This document shows, in pieces, positions 8,564-48,403 of a stretch of DNA of 64,000 nucleotides. Under the pieces are notes generated by a model that saw nothing but the letters and a program-made list of their open reading frames with translations, did not search any database and was not told the DNA's origin. The position numbers were made by a program, and so were the translations under genes. The stretch lies in assembly GCA_964188305.1 (NCBI GenBank), contig OZ076887.1. The stretch is one strand, 5' to 3'. Origin of the DNA: Podarcis bocagei. Taxonomy: Eukaryota. How positions within the stretch are numbered: the stretch's first letter is position 1; each line of letters opens with the position of its first letter.

Positions 8564-9488
8564 ACTGGAATGTACAAATCCTAAGTTCACTTTGTCGCCT
8601 TTATTGTTTTCCCACCATATCTTGCTTGAGTGCATTTCCCCCCTTGTTATGGTTCCTTTTTCTTTTCTAGAGTTAAAAGGCTGCACTGAAAAATGTGTGT
8701 ATTTGGAGATATGCACTAATTGGCCTTGGGACTTCTCTTTTTTCCCTACTCCATACTGTTGGGAGTCCTTTTCTTGGAGTGGTGTTTTATTTAATTGGCA
8801 GGGAAGACAAGCTAAGATCTCATGGGGTAAATACCTGGGGGATATTCGGGTTAAGGGCACACTTTGTAATTCTGTGCCATTTTTGGCACTGGGTTCCTTG
8901 AGGTCACTTTTGGGCTTGGCAGGTGCACCAGTCCCTCTCAACATTTGGGCATGTTTACAGGCTCTATCTGTGGCCCCACAGCAAAGGATTGGAAGGAATT
9001 CTTCCTCCTTGCTACAAGAACTTTGGATATGTGAACCTGACAAGTGCACTGTGGCCTGCCAGGCTCGCATTCACCAGACAGGTATTAGGAAAGAATCCCT
9101 ACTCATGCCTTTCATTCTCAACCTTCACTTTTGTCCAGCATACTTGAGACTTACAGTTTGCATCTTAAGTGAAGGTAACTTAAGGAAGTTTCCCATACCC
9201 TCCTCCCCTCTGTCGTCACCTGCAATCCCCCAAAAAGCTTTGGAGGCACCTCCTATGCCATGTGGGAGGAGCAGAAATGCCAGGGGAAAAGAGAAGATGG
9301 GAAACTTTCATCCTATTCACTTCCTCAAATTCACTTATCTCAGGATCCAAGCCAATGTTTTGTAGCAAAAATAACAGATTTTATGAAACAAGATATGCCT
9401 TGTTCTAGCCCTTTTTTTGTCTCTACTCTCCTTCTCGTTTCTCTCATGGTTTTTCATTTTATCTTTATTAACATATATTGTTGTTTAC

Positions 9489-12270
9489 TTGGCAAATCTC
9501 CAGGCCCAGATGGTCTCACCTCCAAATATTATAAGACTCTGAAGGATTGTTTGATACAACCGTTGCTGGAGGTCTGCAACCAGATTATGGAGGGGAGAAG
9601 GGCACCGGAAACGTGGAAAGAAGCATTCATCACATTGATTCCTAAGTCTGAGAAGGAAAAGACTCAGCTTAAGAACTACCGTCCCATCTCACTCCTGAAT
9701 GTGGATTACAAAATATTTGCAGACATTTTAGCAAGTAGACTTAAAAATGTTTTAAACGAAGTAATTCACAAGGACCAAGCAGGCTTTCTCCCTGGTAGAC
9801 ACATGTCTGATAACACCAGGAACATTATTGATATATTGGAGTTGTTGAGAATTAGAAATACAAGGGCTGCTTTAATCTTTATTGATGCGGAGAAAGCATT
9901 TGACAACATTTCTTGGATGTTTATGAAGAAAAACTTGAAGGGGATGGGAGTGGGACGGGGGTTTGAAAATGGACTAGAAGCAATTTATTCAGAGCAAAAA
10001 GCCAAGTTGATAGTGAACAATGTGGTATCGGATGAACTTCTAATTGAAAAAGGGACACGACAGGGGTGCCCTTTATCCCCTCTGCTATTTATCTCTGTTC
10101 TGGAGGTATTGCTGAATATGATCAGGGAGGACCAGTTGGTGCAAGGTATAGAGGTCGGAGCGAAACAATACAAACTGAAAGCCTTTGCAGATGACCTAGT
10201 CTTGACAGTACAGGAGCCAGTATCTAGCACAAAAAGAGTTTTGGAACTTATCCTGGAGTTTGGTCGGGTGGCGGGATTCAAGTTAAACAAACAAAAAACT
10301 AAGGTTTTGGTCAAAAATTTGACACCTACAGAGATAGAGGGGTATCAGAAAGAGACAGAGCTAAGTGTGGTTAAAAAAGTGAAATACCTGGGGGTATATT
10401 TGTCCACCAAAAATTTAAATCTTTTTAAAGATAACTATGAAAAATGTTGGTTGGAAATTAAAAAAGATCTGGATATTTGGTCAAGATTGAAACTTACCTT
10501 GTCAGGCCGAATCGCAGCTATAAAGATGTGTGTTTTGCCAAAAATGTTATTTTTATTTCAAACCCTTCAGGTCGTGGACAGAATGGAATGTTTTGGAAAA
10601 TGGCAGAAGGATATTTCTAAGTTTGTCTGGCAGGGCAAAAAGCCCCGAATAAAATTTAAAATACTAACTGACTCAAAAGAGAGAGGGGGGTTTGCCCTGC
10701 CGGACTTAAGGTTGTACTATGAAGCTGCAGCCTTCTGCTGGTTGAAGGATTGGTTCCTGTTGGAAAACACCGATGTCCTAGATCTGGAGGGGTTTGATAA
10801 TGTGTATGGTTGGCATGCATACTTGTGGTATGACAAGGCGAAGGTTCATAAATTGTTTAAAAACCATATTGTCAGAAAATCAATTTTTGCCGTCTGGATG
10901 AAGTACAAGGACTTATTAGAAAGCAAGACCCCGAGGTGGCTATCACCTGTGGAAGCCAAGATTTCTAAAAAAAAGCCCAATATGGAGGCCTATTGGCCAA
11001 AATATTGGGAACTGATTGAAAGAGTTGGAGACAATTGGAAGCTCCAAAGCCAGGACAAATTAAAAGGTAAGGTGCGAGATTGGTTACATTATGCTCAAAT
11101 TCAAGAGGTATTCAAAATGGACAAAAAAGTGGGTTTCCAGTTGGAGAAATCGAAACTGGAGACGGAGTTACTAGAACCAAAGACTAAGGTACTTTCGAGG
11201 ATGTATGACTTGCTGCTTAAATGGAACACACAGGATGAGACAGTTAAATCTGCTATGATAAAATGGGCACAGGATGTAGGACACAACATTATGTCTGAGG
11301 ACTGGGAAAGGTTATGGAACACCGGTATGAAATTCACGGCATGCAGTGCCTTGAAAGAGAACATTATGAAAATGGTATACCGGTGGTACATGACCCCAGT
11401 CAAGTTGGCTAAAATATATCATCTTTCTGATAATAAATGTTGGAAATGCAAGGAGGCAGAAGGGACATTCTTTCACCTCTGGTGGACCTGCCCGAAAGTA
11501 AAGGCCTTTTGGGAAATGATACATAATGAGCTGAAAAAGGTATTCAGATATACCTTTGCTAAGAAACCAGAGGCCTTTCTTCTGGGCATGGTGGACCGGA
11601 AGGTGCCAAAGAAGGATAGAACTTTGTTTATGTATGCAACTACAGCAGCAAGGATCCTTATTGCAAAGTTCTGGAAGACACCAGATTTACCCACACTGGA
11701 GGACTGGCAGACGCAGCTGATGGACTACATGGAGTTGGCAGAAATGACTGGCAGAATTCGAGATCTGAGCGAAGAAACAATGGAGGAGGACTGGAAAAAA
11801 TTTAAGGACTATTTGCAAAAACATTATAAGTTGTTTGAATGTTAAGATAGCGCACGATTAAGAAACGTTATGCTTCTGCAATTTATTTTAAGCAAATGAT
11901 AAAGTAAGCATTGACGGAAAAAAACGAGACATATTTGAAACAAAATATTATGTTTATTAAGAGTCTTAAAACTAAAATACAAATTTTTTGAAATTGGTAA
12001 CATAATATATTTAAAGGTATAATAAGATGGGAAACAAGATAACAAATTGCTGAACTGGTTAGAACAATGAATGCAATGCCGAGAGGATGTGAGGAAGTCC
12101 GAAAGTGAATTGTTGAAGGACGTTAAGGAAAGTTGCTTAATATTTCTTTTTTTTCTTATTTTTCTTCATATATATATATATAAAAAATGTTTCTTGCATG
12201 TTGTCATGTAAACAAATTTGTTAACCTATGAAAAGAAACGCAATAAAAAATTATTTAAAAAAAAAAAAAA
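9489..12270 (+). mobile_element. Young 5'-truncated L1-clade LINE
   Basis: Perfect 19-bp TSD aacatatattgttgtttac (9470-9488 and 12271-12289), aataaa and poly(A) at 12242-12270, uninterrupted ORF2 part, 3' UTR about 11846-12240. Confidence 0.97.
9491..11845 (+). CDS. L1 ORF2, partial: RT and C-terminal Cys-rich domain, endonuclease missing
   Basis: Motifs GKSPGPDG, YRPISLLNVDYK, DAEKAFD, GTRQGCPLSP, FADD, KYLG and C-terminal CWKC...H....C. About 785 codons with no stop. The N-terminal ~76 aa of the tracked 9260 ORF come from flanking DNA. Confidence 0.93.
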   Translation, partial: GKSPGPDGLTSKYYKTLKDCLIQPLLEVCNQIMEGRRAPETWKEAFITLIPKSEKEKTQLKNYRPISLLNVDYKIFADILASRLKNVLNEVIHKDQAGFLPGRHMSDNTRNIIDILELLRIRNTRAALIFIDAEKAFDNISWMFMKKNLKGMGVGRGFENGLEAIYSEQKAKLIVNNVVSDELLIEKGTRQGCPLSPLLFISVLEVLLNMIREDQLVQGIEVGAKQYKLKAFADDLVLTVQEPVSSTKRVLELILEFGRVAGFKLNKQKTKVLVKNLTPTEIEGYQKETELSVVKKVKYLGVYLSTKNLNLFKDNYEKCWLEIKKDLDIWSRLKLTLSGRIAAIKMCVLPKMLFLFQTLQVVDRMECFGKWQKDISKFVWQGKKPRIKFKILTDSKERGGFALPDLRLYYEAAAFCWLKDWFLLENTDVLDLEGFDNVYGWHAYLWYDKAKVHKLFKNHIVRKSIFAVWMKYKDLLESKTPRWLSPVEAKISKKKPNMEAYWPKYWELIERVGDNWKLQSQDKLKGKVRDWLHYAQIQEVFKMDKKVGFQLEKSKLETELLEPKTKVLSRMYDLLLKWNTQDETVKSAMIKWAQDVGHNIMSEDWERLWNTGMKFTACSALKENIMKMVYRWYMTPVKLAKIYHLSDNKCWKCKEAEGTFFHLWWTCPKVKAFWEMIHNELKKVFRYTFAKKPEAFLLGMVDRKVPKKDRTLFMYATTAARILIAKFWKTPDLPTLEDWQTQLMDYMELAEMTGRIRDLSEETMEEDWKKFKDYLQKHYKLFEC

Positions 12271-19977: not shown

Positions 19978-21165
19978 CCAGAACAAACTTAGTTGGCCTC
20001 TAAGGTGCTACTGGACAATTTATTATTATTTCTTTATTAATTTTGACTCCTCTGTCACAGGCAGTCTACCTCTGAATAGCACCAATGTCTGGGACTCACA
20101 AATGGGGAGAGGGCTATTTCACTCAAATACTGTTGTGGTATAATTTCACCCCAGTACAGGGTTTGTCAGACTTGTTCCTGGTAAGAGATAGGTAAATGCC
20201 CTTCTCATTATTTCCACCCATGGGTGCCACAACCTGAGATGTGATTTAAAAAAAAAGTGCAAAGTGATGTGCGAATGTGGAAAACAGAACCTGAGAACCT
20301 GATAAAAACCAAAACTGACATATTCCCTTCCCCTCCCTTTTCATGTTTTATGATGGAGTAAATGAGCACAAATGTGTCTGTGGGGCAGCATGGTTCCTCC
20401 CTGTCCCACACACATTTATTTGGAACATGTGTAGAAAGCTCCAGCCCATAAAGCTGCATTAACACCTAGAAATCAGTGGAACAGCCTCTCTCTGCAATGA
20501 CACTCCCCCATGTGCATTAATTTAGTCCCCATGACATATGAAAAGGGCTCATGTCTCCGAAATTGATGCGGTAACTGATCAACCAAACACCTGATGCATC
20601 TCTGGGCTGTGCCAGCTTTGGCTTGATGGATAAAGGCTGCTGGAAGAGATTCTAAGAATTCTGCCTTGTATTGATTCACAGCAGCTATTAGCATTATAGC
20701 CATATGGAGAAGAACATGAAATGGGCATCAACTGAAAATGGAGTTTAGCCTTTAACTTTGAGATCTCAGAATGACCTGGATTGAATGATATTTGGGATTT
20801 GTTTCAGCTAGAAAAATCAGTTGCTTATGAAGTTAACTTTCAATTTCTGCTTTCCACACAGTCTGTGCCACATCATGTTAGCATAACTATTAGTCATTAC
20901 ACACACATAGACGTACATTTATTCAGTACCCAAGGATAATAAAATGTGATGTTGTCCTATCCTGTTAGGGTAGGTTTCTAAAGGGCAACAACCCAGTAGG
21001 GTTACTTGAAACAAGGTGAGTTATATAATATTTCAGTATAGTTCATGGAAATAGAACTGAAGAATGTTGATTCATCTTTCACAAAACAAAGCATTTATAT
21101 TGCTCATGTCTGGTATTCATGCCCTATAAATAATATCACTTTTTTTTAAACAATAACCCTGAAAA

Positions 21166-21316
21166 ATAGTCAAAATAAGAAAAATTCCTTCCAGTAGCAC
21201 CTTAAAGACCAACTAAGTGCACACGAAAGCTCATACCAAGAACTAACTTAGTTGGTCTTTAAGGTGCTACTGGAAGGAATTTTTCTTATTTTGACTATGG
21301 CAGACCAACACGGCTA
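21166..21316 (+). mobile_element. Penelope-like insertion with 5' inverted segment
   Basis: Perfect 53-bp inverted repeat (21166-21218, 21246-21298). Spacer holds cacgaaagctcatacc, the 3' half of the hammerhead. Direct repeat cctgaaaaatag at 21158-21169 and 21317-21328. Confidence 0.85.
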
Positions 21317-21388
21317 CCTGAAAAATAGGTAAGCATTATCCCTATATTACAGGAGCAGGAGCTGAGGGAAGAGTAGCTTGCCTTAGGC

Positions 21389-21524
21389 CAGGCATAGGCA
21401 AACTCCGGCCCTCTAGATGTTTGGGACTACAATTCCCATCATCCCCGACCACTGGTCCTGTTAGCTAGGGATGATGGGAATTGTAGTCCCAAACATCTGG
21501 AGGGCCGGAGTTTGCCTGTGCCTG
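21389..21524. mobile_element. Palindromic hAT MITE
   Basis: TIR caggca(t/c)aggcaaactccggccctc and perfect 8-bp TSD ccttaggc (21381-21388, 21525-21532). Confidence 0.93.
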
Positions 21525-21604
21525 CCTTAGGCTGTAGTTGTATATTACACTTATTGGGGATTTACCATGAAATTTAGTGGGATGTGCTCCTGAATATACA
21601 TGCA

Positions 21605-21965
21605 TTTTTGTTGTTTGCATCCATCTGTCTCGAGAGACAATGGAGTGTGCCTCCAGGGCTGAAGTCAAACCACTGCATTAGCAGCACCAAAGTGACCTCC
21701 CTGGGGTGCAAGCCTGGACAGTATGTATGGAGGTCGCTTGCTGCCCAGATGACCAGACTCACTGATGGAGTCCAAAGGAAAGCAGAGCAAGACATTTGCC
21801 ACCAATCTTGGCTGCAGGAGTTGCCAGAAAGAGGCGTACATGACACCATTCAACCGTTTTAGGGACTCCGTTCCAGACTTGTGTAGGGTTTACTCCTTAG
21901 CCTTTTCTTCTCCTGAAGATATCCCACAAAGCACCAGAGGTTTAGGATCAGAGGGTTCCTTCTCC
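21605..21965 (-). mobile_element. Non-autonomous RTE-related retroelement
   Basis: Minus strand starts ggagaaggaaccctctgatcctaaacc (RTE 5'UTR-like) and ends gagacagatggatgcaaacaacaa. A second partial copy lies at about 30696-30850. Confidence 0.6.
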
Positions 21966-22040
21966 AGATCCCAGAAGGTACCACCAAGGCAGCAGGTTCA
22001 GAGGAGACAGCAGACATGCATAGGATTGTACTATAAGGCT

Positions 22041-22672
22041 CAGGGCCATCTTTAGCATATGTGCCGCCGGGATGCAAAGATCTGCCCAGCACCCCCAAAT
22101 TTAGTTTAGCCCCCCAATTAACTTTTATTATGCTTATGGCAGACACCACACCTTTTTTAAATGATTTCTCTAAACGAATTAGAACTGTAAGTGATGAAAT
22201 TAAAACACAATTTGCAATGTTTCACTCGGGGTCAGCGGCAACTTTGACACGGCTGATCTCGTATGGCTTGCATGCAGGCGGCAGGCAGGCGGCGGAAAAT
22301 CAGTTGTGTCAAAGCTGCTGCTGACCTCTCTTGCTGCATAGCAGCTCAATACAATATGTAACATAATATTTTGTAAGAGTTAATTCCGTGTGCAAGGCGC
22401 CGTTGAGAATGACAAGTGCCGCCGCTAGCGTGGCGCGTCTTTGGTAAATGAGCGCACGAAGTCTAAAGTCCTCTAGTGTAACAGTAGGTATACATTTCGG
22501 TAATACCTAGGTATATATGTGTTTTGTTTTTCTAGCTTGATCAAAATTATTATTTGATAACAGGTAGATAGTTAAGAGCTTGGGTGGCTTCAGTGGTGGG
22601 TGCCTGGTGCCCCCCAGAATTTGGCACCCGGGTGCCCCACATCCCTTGCACCCCCAGGTATAGACGGCCCTG
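22041..22672. mobile_element. Non-autonomous hAT transposon, 632 bp
   Basis: TIR cagggcc(a/g)tct and perfect 8-bp TSD ataaggct (22033-22040, 22673-22680). Confidence 0.92.
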
Positions 22673-22699
22673 ATAAGGCTGCCTAGTGGGCTCTCACAA

Positions 22700-23307
22700 T
22701 GTGCTGGTCCCTGGGGTTAACAGAGAGGCGAGGTCCGAGTCCAGTCCGAGGTCGAGGGTGCGGTATGGAGGCTGTCTGTCAAAGCTGAAGCTGGGTCCAA
22801 GGCAGGGAGTCGGGTGAGGTCAGGAACTCTGGCAGAAGAGCAGGCCAGGGTGTAGGCAGGAACAGGCTACCAACAACATTGCTCCCGCAACCTGGGACTG
22901 GGGCTGGCTGGCTTTTATCTGCCCCAAGGCATAGGGTGGCCCCGGTCCACAGGTGACTCGCCTCTCCTGGCCTGAAGGCGAGCACTCCTCCTGCGGGAAC
23001 CTAGTTCCCTCCGTCTCTCTGCCCTGAGCCTCTGCAGCTCAGGAGAGGCTGGAGGGTTACCGGACCCAGAGGCAACCTCAGCTTCCCCTGACGGGGCTGA
23101 GGGTGGAGCAGCTGCAGGCAATGGGTCCTCCATCCCCTCAGGAGCCAGAGCAGACTCAGCTGGTGCCTGCACCTGAGGATCCAGCACAGGTGAGGACCCT
23201 TCAGGCTCAAGCCCCAGCCCCGGCTCAGCTGTTCTGGAGGCGGGGAATCCTGTGCAGGCTGGGATTCCTCAGGTTCAGCCTCTGAATCCGATTCTCAGGC
23301 CATCACA
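22700..23307 (-). mobile_element. Solo LTR (Gypsy-like), 608 bp
   Basis: Minus strand tgtgatgg...ccagcaca (TG..CA, imperfect IR), TATA-like gataaaag at about 22912-22919, TSD cacaa/cacac (4 of 5). Confidence 0.8.
22915..23303 (-). pseudogene. LTR U3 ORF (acidic/Pro-rich, RRRSARL near C-terminus), one stop plus one frameshift
   Basis: ATG at LTR nt 5 gives MA*ESDSEAEPEESQPAQDSPPPE, then after a 1-nt shift AEPGLGLEPEGSSPVLDPQ...SPELQRLRAERRRELGSRRRSARLQARRGESPVDRGHPMPWGR*. Confidence 0.5.
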
Positions 23308-24097
23308 CACACATTCAGTAATAGCTCCCACATGTATACTCAAGCATATATTCCACTGATTTAAATTACGATTATTCTTAAATTAATGAGCACAGGACTG
23401 CAGACTTTCATTCTATTCTACACCATACTAAATTCTGTTCTATTATTCTAAGGACTTCTAGTCTGTATATCCTTACTGTGCAGTGCGATATTATCAAATA
23501 AAAAACTCATAGTTACTGTGCTTTGTTAATAGGGTCTTTTGTACCCCCAAAACTGTGTAAAATAAGAATGTGTTGGAATTCTCAATAGACTAAACTTTCC
23601 ATAGCAGGTACTGGTACTGGTATAATAAATATTTTAATAATTGATAAAGTCTAGCACATAAATAATTTTTTATATTTATGTATATTTTTTAAAAACAACA
23701 ATTCCTTTTCTACTATGCAAATTTGATTTGTGACAGAAAATGACAGAAAGCAAAATTTTCCATTTTGACACTTCTGTAAATAATAATGATGATTTGATGC
23801 ATTCACAGGTATTTTCTACACAAGAAATAATTTTATTTAGACTCCCCCCCCCACTATCTTTAAGAACTCATTTAGAACATATTACAACACATGTATCTAA
23901 GACAACCACAAAACATTGCTTGTGGGCTTTCTAAATGAAGCAACCAAACTGCTCCAGTTTCTGGTCCTCCTGCATTTCAGTAGTTATTACAAATAAAACA
24001 ACATAAGAAAATAAAATTGAATGTGCTGTCAGGAAAATGGAAGAAGCTGAATTCTAGCAAAGTAAATAAGTGCATGCAATTGGTTCTTCTCTAATTA

Positions 24098-24345
24098 CAG
24101 TGGTACCTTGGGTTACATACGCTTCAGGTTACATACGCTTCAGGTTACAGACTCTGCTAACCCAGAGATATTACCTTGGGTTAAGAACTTTGCTTCAGGA
24201 TAAGAACAAAAATCGTGCTCTGGCGGTGCGGTGGCAGCGGGAGGCCCCATTAGCTAATGTGGTGCTTCAGGTTAAGAACAGTTTCAGGTTAAAAACGGAC
24301 CTCCGGAACGAATTACCGGTAAGTTCTTAACCAGAGGTACCACTG
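24098..24345 (-). mobile_element. Tigger-like MITE (opposite orientation)
   Basis: ta|cagtggtacct...aggtaccactg|ta, reverse complement of the 904/16957 body. Confidence 0.92.
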
Positions 24346-25128
24346 TACTTGTCTCTTTCTCTTTTTCACTCAGCATGGGCACACTCACACACCTATCTCT
24401 CTTTTCCACTAAAAATACTTGTTAGGCATATAGGAAGCTGTCGTATACTGCCATTCCTAAAATACATGGACACATTATTTCCATTCCAGTGGAAAAAGTG
24501 CTTATTCAGCCCTCAGATTAGCTGGCTTTAAGCTACTTCCCATCACAAACAAACACTGTGTCTGTGAATAGAGAGAATCCTCAATTTTTTGACTGACATA
24601 AGTGTTCCTGTAATTAGTAATATTTTTGTTCAATGGTCTTAAATATTACCCTATCTTCAAGAGTCAGTAAGTGATCATTTTCTATAAATGAAATCAACTA
24701 AACTGAAGATAAATATTATCTGCTCAAATATGCTGAAATTTACAGGGGAGTTTCATATCAATCAAGTGACAATAGTGGATTTACATTCCCGCATGACATA
24801 CTTATTTAACATTTCTTTTTTAATAACCAAAATCATTACTTTCTGAAAGCCTATCTATCAATCACTCATCTGATATACAATCAAGCTTGGATACATCTTT
24901 TATTTCTCTTTTGAGCGGGTCCTTGAACATCCAAGCTGAAAGGGATGAGGAACGAAGTTGCTCCTCAAATTGTATCCAGTGGTGAAGTTTGTGTTCTAAC
25001 TTCCAGTTCCCTGCAGTCCATCTCTAGGAGGGTTGCCATATTTCAAGCAGTAAACCCCACCCCCCAAGATTGTTGAGGTTTTTTTTACAAACACGGTTCA
25101 AAACCTATCTCTAGTGAAAGACTTTGGC

Positions 25129-35578: not shown

Positions 35579-35825
35579 TGTTAAGTTGTGGGTGAACATA
35601 TCAGATGACACAGCGATTCTTCAAACAGCTCTTGTTTATTCACAGGCCAAAACACAACTGAACTGAAGGGTTCAGTCAGCCTGCTTATATAGAGCTCCAG
35701 TACAACGTTACTGTAACAACTTTCTAAAACTACCCAATCACTGAACGTCACTTTCGATCCCTTATTTGCATAACTATCTACAGTATCCCCCTGCTGGCCC
35801 AGGGTGAGAACTTCAGTACATAATA
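35579..35825 (-). mobile_element. Short solo LTR (copy 1), inside an old SINE fragment (about 35520-35912)
   Basis: Minus strand t(a)ttatgtactgaag...tatataag...aataaa...cttaaca with perfect 5-bp TSD gttct (35574-35578, 35826-35830). Confidence 0.88.
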
Positions 35826-38800
35826 GTTCTCCCTCTCCCCATTTTATCCTTATAGCAACCCTGTGAAGTAGGTCAAGCTGAGAGACAATGACTGCTCCAA
35901 GGTCACCCAGGGGAAACCCCTTGAAGCATCTGTTGTGTTGTTTTAATTGCTTTTGTTTGATCTGCTCAACGCAAACAGCTGAAAGTCTGTAAATTTTGAT
36001 AATGAACCTGATTTGCAATGGGTGTGTGTGTGTTTTAGTGATTTCGATTTCAACTGTATGCATGCAGTGTGCTTTTCAGTGTACTTTAAAAATGAACACA
36101 TGCCTGTGCCCAAAAGTAATGGTTGAAAGATTGCCTCTTCAACTCCTTGTTCCTGGGTCCCTTACAGCAACGGCCATTTCTGATGGATGTGTGGCTAGCA
36201 GGGATCTTATTTGTCTTTCATACCACTGAGGTGTTAAGCATCACCAGCCTGCTACCTAAGAGGAACTGCTGTGCTCTGGAGATACAATGATGGATGCACA
36301 CTAAGTCCTCCACCCTGAAGAGTCATACAGACAAAAGTGGCATACAGCCTATAGTTCATAAAAGAGCAGTGTACTGAAAGAGCAGTGAGTCCTGAGTTAA
36401 ATACAAGCAGATTTCTCAAAATGAAATTGCCAAAAGTCAATTTTGGGCTGAAAATTAAAAGGACTATATAAAATAGTATTAACATGTTGGCATGACATCT
36501 TCTGCTTGCAGCTTTAGTCCCTGCCAATAATGTGAAGCGTTAGGTGTGCCCACTTTGATTTCTAGAGCAATAGCAGTTCTCCAAATAATCTCCCCCCCCT
36601 TCAATTGTGCTCTTATATTGATCTCCTGTCCACAAGTGTCGTTTGCTGCGTCTCTTGCTGTCTTTCAGGATGATGCTAATTGAAAGCAGTGTGTTAATTT
36701 AAAGCAGGGCACTCCCATTAACCTTGCCAATATACCAAGGAGGGAGAAGAAAAGGGTGGCACAACAGTGACACTGATGCAAGGAATCGTGAGAATTGGTG
36801 GGCTTGGTACGCCAAGCACTGAACATATGAATCTACAAATGATTGGCCCATCCAGCCCGGGTGCATTGGCTGTGGTTGTCAAAGCTCTCTGCTACCTGTG
36901 ACCCTTTTAAGTAGCAAGCATAGGGACAGACTATCATCTTGTATATGCAAAGCATCTGCTCTGCATAGTATCTCTCTCTGCAGTCAGCTCAATGGGGGTT
37001 TGTGATGGATGCCATCAATGTGTGCAGCATATTATTGAGAAAAATATACAAAAGACCTGTCTCTAGTCCAGGGAACTTGTAAGCTCAAGGAGGAAGCTAG
37101 AAGGAAAGTCAAAGGAAGAAGAGGTGAATACAAGCAAAGGGAGCAACATGTTTTTTGGATTTGTTTTATTGGGGGGTAAAGATGGACATGTTAGCACTGC
37201 ACCCATATAGTTTTTCCACAAGCAAAGACACATGGTTGTGCTAAAGGTTAAGACAGTGATGGTTGATGACAACTACTTATAATTTAAGGTATGATTCATG
37301 GATCCCTGTGTGTTTACATAGCAGGCTTTCTTCTATGCCATTTGGTTGGCCAGTGGCTACCTGTTTGCTTACTGAGGCAAACAGGATCCCCTGCCGCAGT
37401 TGCTGGTGCTCTGTGCCCCCATTGTGGGAGAAATGGCATACTTTGCGGCTTCTAGCTGGACACTGTTGTGATTGGTCACTGCAGGTTCAGTAAATGCTGG
37501 ACAGCCGCTGGGCATGTAGTATCCTGGATCTGCAGAATGCCTGGGAGTGTGGCGGCTGCCAGCACTGTTGCAGCACCACCATATCAATTCTGATTGTATT
37601 GAGGAATACAGTGGCAATGTCATCTGTGTGTCAGGTGCTGGAATTCAGGAGACAAAACATTCAGTGTAGAGATATACTCCCCTCAGGAATTTAGAATCTG
37701 AGTAAAGAAACCACACTGGTTCCCTCCCACCCGCCTTGCTGTTTCTATCCTGCAGGAATTGGAAAATGATTGCCTGAAGCAGGGATATTACATGAACAGC
37801 CTCCCCTTCAGAAAGTTGTCCTCCAACTCAATGAGGGCAACAAAAACTGAGGGGGTAGTGCTAGCACACTCATCTCTACAGTTTGCCCACTTCATGTGAT
37901 GCCTTTTCTTGGCTTCTCAATGTCTGAAGAGGGCAGTGGGGAAGCAGAATTTCAGGGGGAGAAACCACATTCCTGTCTTAAAGTAAGCCTTTTCAGCAGA
38001 AAGTCAAGACATACCTAAATGCATACTAACTACACATGCTTAGTGAGATCAGGGATTATGTTGGCACAGTGCATGCAACCAAATAGTTGCATGCACGCAA
38101 GGATTACTTGCACAATGGGACTTCCATCCCCCTCTCTCCAAGCCCCAATACACACTCTGTGCCATCATCAGACCTACTCTGGAAGTTTGAGGGAAATCCC
38201 CCCAAAAATGTAGGCGGGGTGCAGGGGGAAAAGGGATGGAGAATGTTACGAATGTTAAGAAGATATCCTTGTGCTGAGGGAACCAGTAACTTGACGCTAC
38301 ATTGAATGCAACCCACAGCCTATTTGTGTACAAATTGTTGTCGCCACAATCCTGCTCCTCTTGTGCCAATGCATTCAGTGTACCACCAATGAATGTGTGA
38401 AGGGGGTTCCACTCCCTTCACATTGGGTCTAACCATTTGAGTAATGCAGTCAAGGACAAAACCCCTGCTAATGCCTCAGCTATTTTAATCTTTAAATTTG
38501 GAGGCTGCCCCCCCCCCAGTATTTCAACTTTTGTCTCTCACAGGTATTAGTCTGAATTCATTTTAATTTAATGTGCAATATAATTTAGTTTCTTAATTAA
38601 TGTGACATTAAAATCAAAAACTTAATTAAAAGGTATTTTGTTATATACCACCAATAAAGCTTTTACTCAACTGAGATTACCTAAAAGATACAAATGCCGA
38701 CATATTATCAAAAATAAATGTGCTTTGTCCCTCCCTGAAGGGGTGGGCGGGCGTGGAGGATGGCTTTAAAGACTTGTAAGCTACGAGTTTTATTCCTTTG

Positions 38801-41517: not shown

Positions 41518-41775
41518 AGTTAAGTTGTGGGTGAACATATCAGACGACACAGCGATTCTTCAAACAGCTCTTGTTTATTCACAGGCCAGAACAGAACTGA
41601 ACTGAAGGGTTCAACCAGCCTGCTTATATAGAACTCCACTAGAATGCAACAGTAACCATTTTCTGTAACTATCCAATCACTGAACGTCACTTTTGATCCC
41701 TTATTTGCATATGTGGACCTGAACTATCTACAGTATCCCCCTGCTGGCCCAGGGTGAGAACTTCAGTACATAACA
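41518..41775 (-). mobile_element. Short solo LTR (copy 2)
   Basis: Same family as 35579 and 47388. Left terminus reads agttaag rather than tgttaag. Confidence 0.88.
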
Positions 41776-41778
41776 CTG

Positions 41779-45221: not shown

Positions 45222-47387
45222 TTTAAACATGCATAGGACAGTGTTATACGTATCTTTCTTCAATAAATTGTTATGACTTTGTGAGGGTATGCTGAGATCT
45301 GACTAATCCCTGGATCCTGCAAATGTTAAAATACAAGCCAGGCTGGCTTATTGGTGAGGTGATCGCCTAGGGTTGGGAAGAAATGAAGATCTGTGCAAGA
45401 CGGCAAATGAGTGGGCCCCTCTCTCAACTGGCTGATAGTTAGAAAGACAAAGGGAATCATGTAAGAGGGGAGTCATGTGAACTAAAAGCTGGAAGAAAAG
45501 CAGCAGGCTGGGAAGCCAAAGAGAGAGCACTATATTTGATATATTTGTGAAGGGAGCCTCCACATCCTTTCCTATCACTGAAAGGATGATGAAGGGAGAA
45601 GCAAAAGGGCTCTTCCGTGAATTTTTAAGATTCCCTGCTTGTTTACGTTTCCAGGTAAAATACTCTTGTGTAGGCACAGAAGATACATGCAGGCCTGGTG
45701 AGTGGAGCAGAAGATAACTGCCTTCAATGAGGCCAGAGTCAGAGAAGTTTAACTGATTTTTTAATGGAATGACCTTGTAGCAAAGTCCAGAGCATTGTCT
45801 TAACAAGCTTCTTGTATAAGGAGACATGATGCCGGAGAAACGAAACAGCAATTTTCTGCAGCTCAGAGTTGGTCTCACACAACTGTGTCTAGTCACGAAA
45901 AGGTGTAAATGAAAAATGGCCTGTTTTCTTTCTGGGCTCTCAAGATTGGTGCCTGGAGGAGGTTTTTGAATGTGCTATGGGTGACTTGCTCAGTTTAATA
46001 CCCATTTGTTGAGTTCTTGGTTCCGTCCCCCCACTCCCAGCATAAGTGCACTGGGAATAAACCAGAAACTATATTGGCATTAATATGTGTATTCATTGTA
46101 AGAGTTTAAACAAGTTAAGATGCTTGAAATAGGGGGAAACAAACAAGAAAGAGACAGGGAGGCAAACTAAGCATGAATTTTAATGTCCTAGTGTACAGGT
46201 TGTGATCTGTAGGGCAGCGGTGTTGATTCAGAGATGGCAAATTTTAGTCAGCCCAGCTCAGAAATGGATCACTACTAATGAGTATTTTTAGAGGACAATC
46301 AGGATGGATCCAAACACCAGCTTCAGGTGTGCCCTCACACTAAGAAGTGTATGCCCACCTTGTGAACTGAGCTGTCAGGACTTCTGCGCTGCCTACAGCC
46401 ACAATTTTACCTGTCTCAAAGTGTGATATCAGAGGATTTCAACAAAAATGGAAATGTAAGCAGAAATTGCTGATGTGTGCTTCTTCACCCCATATCCAGG
46501 ATGGAGATCCATCCAGTGAATACAAACAATATTCACTGTTGTTGTTGTTTTCAGTTTGCAAATGATATATAATTTCCATTGTCTTTCCTTTGTATTGAAA
46601 TGAATGAGGTGGAATAAGCTAAGGACCTGTGGTTTTGCTTGATTTTATAATCAAGTGGCATATGTTAAACAAAATAAAATCAGTAGAATGAAGAAATTTA
46701 TGAAATAAGTAAATTGAATAAGCAAATTATGTAAGTTATGTAATTTTGCCACAGTGGACAACAAGACAAATAATATAGTTTTTTGACAGAAGACAAACTG
46801 CTATGGAACAGAAACAGCGCTGCAAGTAAAGAATACAGGGCAAGGCAGAAAACAATTCTTTCTTATATCTCTAGTCTCCAGTGGAATTAAGGCACAGCAA
46901 GGCAGGAGTGTCTTATTATTAGTTTAGTTAATTAAAATGTATGCAGTTCAGTGAATCAGTTCACCTGCACAACATCACTATCTGTGTTCTTTTGATGGGG
47001 TTTCTGCAGCAGCTGCAAGATTCAGTGACAAAAGACATCCCTGAGCCCATGTGTTCACTTTCTCTTCCCCAAGCAACCTTTCAAGCCCTGTGCATTTCTT
47101 TTATTTTCTTTGTTCTCTTCATTCCTTATATTTATCATCTGTTTTGTATGTTCTTCCACACTGGCTGTTGCAGAGGGGCTCATCTCATGTTCAGGACTCT
47201 AAAAGTATAATTGTTGTTGCATTTAATTTCAAACAGAGATATGAATGGAGCTTTCAGGGCCCTGGAAATTTGGCTGCAATTCTGTACCTTGGAAGTAAGT
47301 CCTGTTGAACTCAATGGGACTTACCTCTGAGTAGACCTGTGTAGACCTGTGCTATTCTCATTTCAGATCTGTTGTCCATATCCAAAG

Positions 47388-47648
47388 TGTTAAGTTGTGG
47401 ATGAACACATCAGACGACATCGATTCTTCAAACAGCTCTTGTTTATTCACAGGCCAGAACAGAACTGAACTGAAGGGTTCAGCCACCCTACTTATATGGA
47501 ACTCCACTACAATGCAACTGTAACACTTTCTGTAACTATCCAATCACTGAACGTCACTTTCAATCCCTTATTTGCATATGTGGACCTGAGTGAAAACTAT
47601 CTACAGTATCCCCCTGCTGGCCCAGGGTGAGAACTTCAGTACATAACA
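47388..47648 (-). mobile_element. Short solo LTR (copy 3)
   Basis: tgttaag...cataaca termini, TSD caaag/caaaa. Confidence 0.88.
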
Positions 47649-48403
47649 CAAAACTACAGCTCTACTGGAGCAATGGGCTTCTGTGCATGCAGCAGAACTT
47701 CTTCTCCTTCTTCTGTCCCCTCCAACTCCCTTCCCCATTCCTCAAAACCAGCTCCAGAGGGTGGGGGGGGGGAATGACCCCTCTGGAGCTGATATTAGGG
47801 CCATGCATGGGGAAGAGAGGAAACAGAAGTCCAATTGTTCCAGCTGAACTAGGCATGAAGAGCATTAGATGCAACCCTGTATTCAAACACTGATGTTCAA
47901 ATAGATTTCTAGAACACAAACCCTCCCTTCCACACATGAAGTGTCCAGCTTTTATGCCTATCAAAGTTTGCATTCTCTGGTGTTGATTTTACCACCGAAT
48001 AATAACTGTCAAGTGAGATTTCTGTCTCTTGCCTTCTACCTTCCAAATACTGAGCAGTGCAATGCAAAAACAGAGGAGCACGTCAAACCAAATGTCAAAA
48101 CCTGTCAGCTTTCAGGGAGGCTTCATCTGTGTTCCATGCACCACTTTGGGACGGATAATATTCCCTGGCATTTGGGATGACTATCATTTGACTTTGTCAC
48201 TATTGTTTGGGCTTAAGAAGTAAAAATGAAAATGAAAATGAAAAGGACCAGCATGCACTCCCATTATCTCAGGATGAGTTAGCTGTGTTTATAGAAAACA
48301 CAGTATCATCATGTGGATTTAGTTCCTGCATTACAAATTATTACAGCTGTCACCCTTTGTGGTCAAATCAGTTCAGCCTTAACTCACTGCTGGCAAACTT
48401 ACT

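Follow-up and report, generated by a model that had tools for sequence, protein, structure and literature searches.

The choice of landing site is well understood for only a few retroelement systems. A long terminal repeat (LTR) in a 64,000-nucleotide stretch of Podarcis bocagei DNA (contig OZ076887.1, hereafter the window) raises the question of what its U3 region encodes, since an acidic reading frame there ends close to the HMGN-like motif RRSARL. The first-pass annotation, made from the letters of the window, had left two options, an accessory peptide of the Sag/Nef kind or an integrase tail that enters the 3' LTR. The locus comprises the following features.

22700-23307, minus strand: solo LTR of a lacertid Ty3/gypsy chromovirus, 608 bp, TG...CA ends, 63% GC.
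22695-22699, no strand: left copy of the target-site duplication, CACAA, 5 bp.
23308-23312, no strand: right copy of the target-site duplication, CACAC, with one mismatch to the left copy.
22912-22919, minus strand: TATA-like GATAAAAG with the TAA stop of the window copy (22917-22915), putative U3/R boundary.

The GC content of 63% between 22700 and 23307 compares with roughly 40% in the surrounding DNA. Besides its TG...CA ends and target-site duplication, the LTR shows the two other marks of a solo LTR, an empty site and a missing interior. One contig of run X6, from another species, omits 613 nt (608+5) at the LTR. When two Podarcis Pols and one Anolis Pol were compared with the window by tblastn, matches fell solely inside the LTR and involved the Podarcis tails only, and DNA-run depth was confined to 22700-23307 with mixed flanks at both ends; internal element sequence was found by neither approach near the LTR. 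Matching contigs numbered 6427 and 6564 in two public DNA runs of two species. The family is a high-copy one, and the window copy is one of its solo LTRs, now dead. Its U3/R boundary was placed provisionally from the TATA-like box. The window LTR copy has no AATAAA, no tandem repeat was found in 22700-23307, no Rfam family matched in 21000-25000 and the exact LTR DNA had 0 matches in metagenomes. A bacterial promoter scan returned 0 predictions, its bacterial model being irrelevant to lizard DNA.

Within U3 the frame can be divided as follows.

23232-23303, minus strand: opening 24 codons of the acidic integrase tail encoded by the LTR; here codon 3 is a stop.
23059-23229, minus strand: acidic Pro/Ala-rich variable linker, with a frameshift near 23230 at its start.
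23002-23058, minus strand: conserved block NPPASPELQRLRAERRREL, 14 of 19 columns invariant and 86% identity in five tails.
22975-22992, minus strand: HMGN-like motif RRSARL, unchanged in all 6 columns across five tails.

The feature had been proposed with no strand given, and we found it present with all its parts on the minus strand; a plus-strand reading of the interval was rejected because it meets stops in 3 of 3 frames. As described in the first-pass annotation, an ATG lies near the LTR edge (it starts at 23303, the fifth LTR base, the edge being 23307), codon 3 is a stop (23297) and a one-base break interrupts the frame, near 23230 where 23231 had been given. The second frame is stop-free down to the TAA at 22917-22915, inside GATAAAAG, and the broken frame spans 389 nt, or 129 positions with X at both breaks. 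The peptide is indeed acidic and Pro-rich (18% D/E, 17% P, 14% A, 12% S), with a net charge of -18 ahead of a basic block and +9 within that block (25 residues), and RRRSARL lies at 22995-22975 on the minus strand. Stop-free runs of at least 104 codons arose in 54% of dinucleotide shuffles of the interval, so that ORF length alone is uninformative. In contrast, RRSARL occurred in 0.05% and RRSxR[LI] in 0.5% of 20,000 dinucleotide shuffles read in six frames; the motif, rather than the length of the ORF, is the unusual part. The stop at codon 3 is peculiar to the window copy, since more than 99% of the depth in both DNA runs differs within this codon, and the indel at 23230 was seen in 34 (X1) and 25 (X6) contigs. 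The frame is broken in the window copy only and is intact in the family. With X at the breaks, the window peptide equals model P0001 at 56 of the first 66 positions.

The unbroken 104-aa piece of the peptide matched 3 proteins among 2825 longer candidates, and when 1.84 billion representatives were searched without a profile, 6 matches emerged, 4 from Podarcis and 2, P0032 and P0035, that were rejected as unrelated repeat proteins. Every genuine match was thus a Podarcis protein, and no match of P0016 in viral contigs was confirmed. P0003 (1240 aa) is a full Pol with protease, RVT_1, RNaseH, rve, SH3_Tf2-1 and, at 1054-1101, Chromo domains. This PR-RT-RH-IN order with a C-terminal chromodomain identifies the parent element as a Ty3/gypsy chromovirus, and the aromatic cage Y1054/W1075/Y1078 of P0003 identifies the chromodomain as type I, a type defined by three cage residues Y, W and Y in the available part of PMC3605345. 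The LTR peptide forms the last 116 residues of P0003, with a 52% match to the window peptide over residues 1150-1225. Base 23306 is aligned with residue 1124; this puts the edge of the LTR inside a G-V-M junction, where the LTR ATG is an internal in-frame codon of pol. In a cluster of 15 proteins, 6 extend as far as the chromodomain, and 5 of the 6 carry on through RRSARL; the sixth model stops at the chromodomain, and the remaining 9 consist of fragments and shifted models.

In five Podarcis Ty3/gypsy chromovirus Pols the frame thus goes beyond the chromodomain, enters the 3' LTR and finishes with the peptide. The full-length frame reads protease-RT-RNaseH-integrase-SH3-chromodomain, then a Gly-rich stretch, presumably encoded by the purine-rich tract, then the 3' LTR, where it ends 110-116 residues later, just after RRSARL. 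The tail after the chromodomain is 122-128 aa long and mostly LTR-encoded. The claim that the frame ends on the TAA of the TATA-like box holds for the window copy (22917-22915) but not across the family: P0003 and P0017 end three codons earlier, which unlinks the end of the frame from the box. Of the two options originally raised, the integrase tail entering the 3' LTR stands, as pol of full-length elements does read into U3 (P0003 and relatives), while the Sag/Nef-like accessory peptide is not supported, because a frame continuous with pol is unlike a stand-alone U3 gene. As to architecture, the window interval is almost certainly a broken solo-LTR copy of the C-terminal tail of an integrase.

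The same peptide also heads the gag models P0001, P0002 and P0018. Whole or in part it precedes gag in P0001, P0002, P0018, P0034 and P0037, joined at differing points, and the sequence is therefore present at both element ends; these peptide-gag models look like gene-prediction splicing from the 5' LTR. Separately, the Podarcis models P0031/P0036 (XP_077791897.1, LOC114604991) and P0033 (CEP63/Deup1-like) carry the LTR tail as a first or internal exon, which may reflect exonisation or a prediction artefact.

To follow the motif across subfamilies we compared five tails: the window copy (X at breaks), P0003, P0017, P0002 and P0031. The linker has a mean pairwise identity of 44% and changes length by whole codons, whereas RRSARL is invariant, and the distance from the Met to the motif is 88, 94, 94, 104 or 116. 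Both of the checks suggested beforehand, conservation of the motif at the protein level and preservation of the frame by indels, thus came out positive in these diverged tails. This in-frame conservation is partly ascertained, because the tails, all of Podarcis type, were found by protein similarity. The three residues between the NPPASPELQRLRAERRREL block and RRSARL are free (30%). All five tails carry RRSxR[LI], with both arginines and the serine, and shuffling the residues of the tail produced RRSARL at a rate of 6.5e-5. Synonymous variants made up 2 of 3 in the block and 4 of 23 elsewhere (p=0.12; 26 in-frame variants classed among the 40 of 283 listed, stop site excluded), which falls short of demonstrating purifying selection on the block. 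The block NPPASPELQRLRAERRREL is likely a charged helix, and disorder in the tail is likewise suggested by the sequence. Two unbroken pieces of the peptide matched no Pfam family at E up to 10, and a PDB sequence search with the 45-aa block gave 0 matches. The Podarcis and Anolis tails had no usable match in the ESM Atlas, a result that carries no weight.

Outside Podarcis, RRSxR[LI] was found in 0 of 82 other chromodomain-bearing chromovirus Pol tails and in 0 of 80 metagenome loci, which indicates that the motif is no general need of chromoviruses; in what could be sampled it appears lineage-specific, squamate sampling being poor. Among the 82 tails, P0027 has RSARL directly at the end of the chromodomain. 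We did not accept RxSxR as a general motif of the integrase ends of chromoviruses: it occurred in 9 of 68 against 4.5 expected (p=0.03), but the control RxPxR was also found in 9 of 68. The tails of P0055, P0071, P0082, P0090 and P0096 end in PRRSS[AV]R before a Gly-rich junction, with a Dsup-like RxSxR spacing.

What might such a tail do? Counted from its start, the HMGN core RRSARLSA agrees with RRSARL over six letters, among them the two arginines that bind the patch (available parts of PMC12487698, PMC13347269 and PMC12480509). The likeness asserted in the first-pass annotation is thus exact over six letters but ends there, positions 7-8 being QA or KA instead of SA, and the protein does not belong to the HMGN family. 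In the available part of PMC12487698, cryo-EM shows residues 22-26 of HMGN2 (RRSAR) contacting the acidic patch via R23 and R26, and AlphaFold 3 is reported to fail on the HMGN2-nucleosome complex. The unrelated proteins Dsup (RRSSRLTS) and Dot5 (RRSARIAT) bind with looser matches, according to the accessible text of PMC13347269 and PMC12480509. An acidic-patch function is accordingly something we predict for RRSARL with rather more belief than doubt. With modest confidence we propose that RRSARL is an HMGN-type arginine anchor which, together with the chromodomain, would tether the integrase to nucleosomes. The U3 of the 3' LTR would be part of the element RNA, so the tail would presumably be translated, and the protease would leave it attached to the integrase. 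The acidic linker of roughly 100 residues could then serve as a flexible tether, with the chromodomain reading a methylated H3 tail and RRSARL docking on the H2A-H2B acidic patch. Such a two-point nucleosome grip would aid chromatin capture, as foamy virus achieves via Gag, whose R540 anchors on the acidic patch and steers integration (accessible part of bioRxiv 2025.01.10.632130).

The basic block of the same integrase tail could instead be a nuclear localization signal (NLS) or a non-specific DNA-binding patch that matches HMGN incidentally. Its net charge of +9 over 25 residues would suit this role, Arg-rich ends are common among chromovirus tails, and a C-terminal NLS of Ty1 integrase is cited in the references of PMC3605345, as far as that text was available. 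We nevertheless regard this explanation as unlikely: an NLS should keep charge and not specific letters, yet within the motif S, A and L never change, while the basic residues that follow are variable (Q/K, R/K/Q) and the three residues ahead of it are free.

A less likely explanation again is that the block is kept as DNA, through promoter-proximal sites in U3, and that the tail is a tolerated read-through of pol with no function as a protein. The NPPASPELQRLRAERRREL and motif block lies directly upstream of the TATA-like box, at 55-140 nt, and for this reason promoter constraint on it is possible. Depth in run X1 peaks at 22972-22995, the most shared DNA, GC-rich DNA easily yields long stop-free frames (the 54% of shuffles given above), and 8 of 10 linker variants are non-synonymous among the variants listed. 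On the other hand, a polymorphism at the third base of the RRSARL Leu codon (56-58% of depth) leaves the amino acid unchanged, subfamilies differ in length by whole codons, and the chance of a six-residue HMGN match is about 5e-4, all of which counts against this explanation.

Two RNA runs gave 304 and 340 reads on the LTR. These were mostly less than 95% alike and hence come from other copies; they formed no start or end pile-ups, and 65-70% continued into unlike sequence. U3 reads of run X23 were mostly first-mate-on-minus, which would be antisense to the frame if the library is of the usual stranded type. The RNA side gives no support for a solo-LTR peptide and is, alone, inconclusive on whether the LTR has a transcript of its own. 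Production of the peptide from solo LTRs is not supported, as the ATG sits upstream of the TATA-like box of the LTR itself, and the RNA has neither a start site nor a clear sense signal. A separate accessory protein made from the LTR ATG by spliced or read-through RNA or by solo LTRs, in the manner of MMTV Sag, which is an accessory protein of U3 type, is very improbable: although P0001, P0002, P0018 and the RefSeq model XP_077791897.1 (P0031) begin at this ATG and U3 is covered by RNA reads from related copies, at the LTR end the ATG shares the frame of pol, a Met occupies the same junction in Anolis and frog elements with unrelated tails, the reads behave as just described, and the models join gag at varying points, as prediction artefacts would.

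An integrase tree of 33 rows, from which P0087 was dropped as too short, groups the parent element with vertebrate elements and unites those of Podarcis, Anolis and Rhineura in a single clade (100/98). The Anolis sister family comprises clusters of 75 and 46 members, of which 30 were listed (P0104, P0105 and P0112-P0139, Anolis carolinensis Gypsy Pol). Among the members listed, the Anolis Pols are without a chromodomain, and they cross a similar junction into an acidic tail of roughly 137 aa. This tail lies in the LTR, as model P0133 carries it at both ends. In all 23 listed rows that reach the tail, a charged stretch ends in LRDIF or something close to it and is followed by an acidic linker of 8 residues and FxGF. 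For the count we used the stricter pattern [DE]x[DE]xFxGF, which we take to be the LEDGF-type motif and whose shuffle rate in the Anolis tail is 3.7e-4. The succession of helix, acidic linker and FxGF fits a TND-interacting motif of the LEDGF/HRP2-binding type (available part of PMC9987994). The Anolis family has, from these Pols, lost the chromodomain, and its LTR-encoded tail has a predicted LEDGF-binding-type FxGF instead. Homology between the Podarcis and Anolis tails was rejected (hhalign probability 0.14%). The Anolis FxGF tail is possibly more striking than the Podarcis RRSARL tail.

Relatives thus carry other chromatin motifs at the same position, the TIM-like FxGF in the Anolis sister family and the AT-hook RGRP, the latter following the chromodomain in 5 of 68 other tails against 0.46 expected. 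Chromatin-tethering motifs thus seem to gather at the integrase end. RGRP comes directly after the chromodomain in P0030, P0057, P0060, P0074 and P0106, integrases of fish and other chromoviruses, and lies at the chromodomain end in P0078. We suggest tentatively, and with more doubt than for the anchor itself, that U3 of squamate chromoviruses is a swappable cassette for integrase targeting, holding an HMGN mimic in lacertids and a LEDGF/HRP2-motif mimic in Anolis. If so, a retrotransposon would reach HIV's tethering factor by mimicking a host motif, and sister elements would target different chromatin. Podarcis and Anolis offer related elements with different predicted tethers and many insertions each, so a predicted difference in insertion pattern is testable in existing genomes.

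The parent element shares with chromoviruses of the Sushi-like vertebrate branch the PR-RT-RH-IN-SH3-Chromo order and the type I cage. Its 122-128 aa tail sets it apart from the 82 chromovirus relatives, whose median post-chromodomain tail is 17.5 aa. The extension of Pol into the LTR is of a known kind, because Pol of plant CRM group A continues into the 3' LTR, bearing a targeting motif (PMC3059260 and PMC3605345, as far as available). In CRM group A, however, the CR motif replaces the chromodomain, whereas the Podarcis element keeps its chromodomain upstream of the LTR, adds an HMGN-like linear motif within it and belongs to a different lineage; it is set apart from CR motifs by description. 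With HMGN, tardigrade Dsup and yeast Dot5 there is no homology outside the motif, which in Podarcis sits on a transposon integrase and whose binding is predicted. Prototype foamy virus likewise has a retroelement arginine anchor on the acidic patch, but in Gag, while the putative Podarcis anchor is on the integrase. MLV integrase bears a short BET-binding motif in a flexible C-terminal tail that tethers it to chromatin (PMC5053271), a motif that, in the part of that paper available, binds a reader protein and not histones, unlike the proposed Podarcis anchor. Neither the foamy virus anchor nor the MLV motif is described as LTR-encoded in the accessible portions of bioRxiv 2025.01.10.632130 and PMC5053271.

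We found no report of an HMGN-like motif on a retrotransposon integrase in a literature search that left most subscription literature, Repbase notes and supplements outside. Papers on HMGN-like motifs and the acidic patch concerned Dsup, Dot5 or HMGN only, none on the acidic patch and gypsy integrase dealt with such a tail judging by titles and the beginnings of abstracts, FxGF on a retrotransposon integrase matched solely a JIL-1 paper, and nothing was found on squamate LTR-encoded tails. An LTR-encoded integrase tail with an HMGN-like motif is a real variant that has apparently gone undescribed, its function being predicted. If the motif binds, the integrase would dock straight on the acidic patch through a copy of a host HMGN motif, in addition to its reader of histone marks, and a transposon would join the short HMGN-like list of Dsup and Dot5.

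Some minor observations were made along the way. Many bacterial and archaeal MAG records (L002-L065) match an H2A motif; the two inspected, L013 and L033, proved to be histone gene clusters of animal type and hence contamination from a host. Elsewhere in the window, an 888-codon open LINE reverse-transcriptase frame, apparently 5'-truncated, occupies 9179-11845 on the plus strand, and a MITE-like perfect inverted repeat of 53 bp, its arms separated by 27 bp, lies at 21166-21298. Three related segments about 5.9 kb apart (35580-35826, 41519-41776 and 47387-47649) perhaps reflect local tandem duplication.
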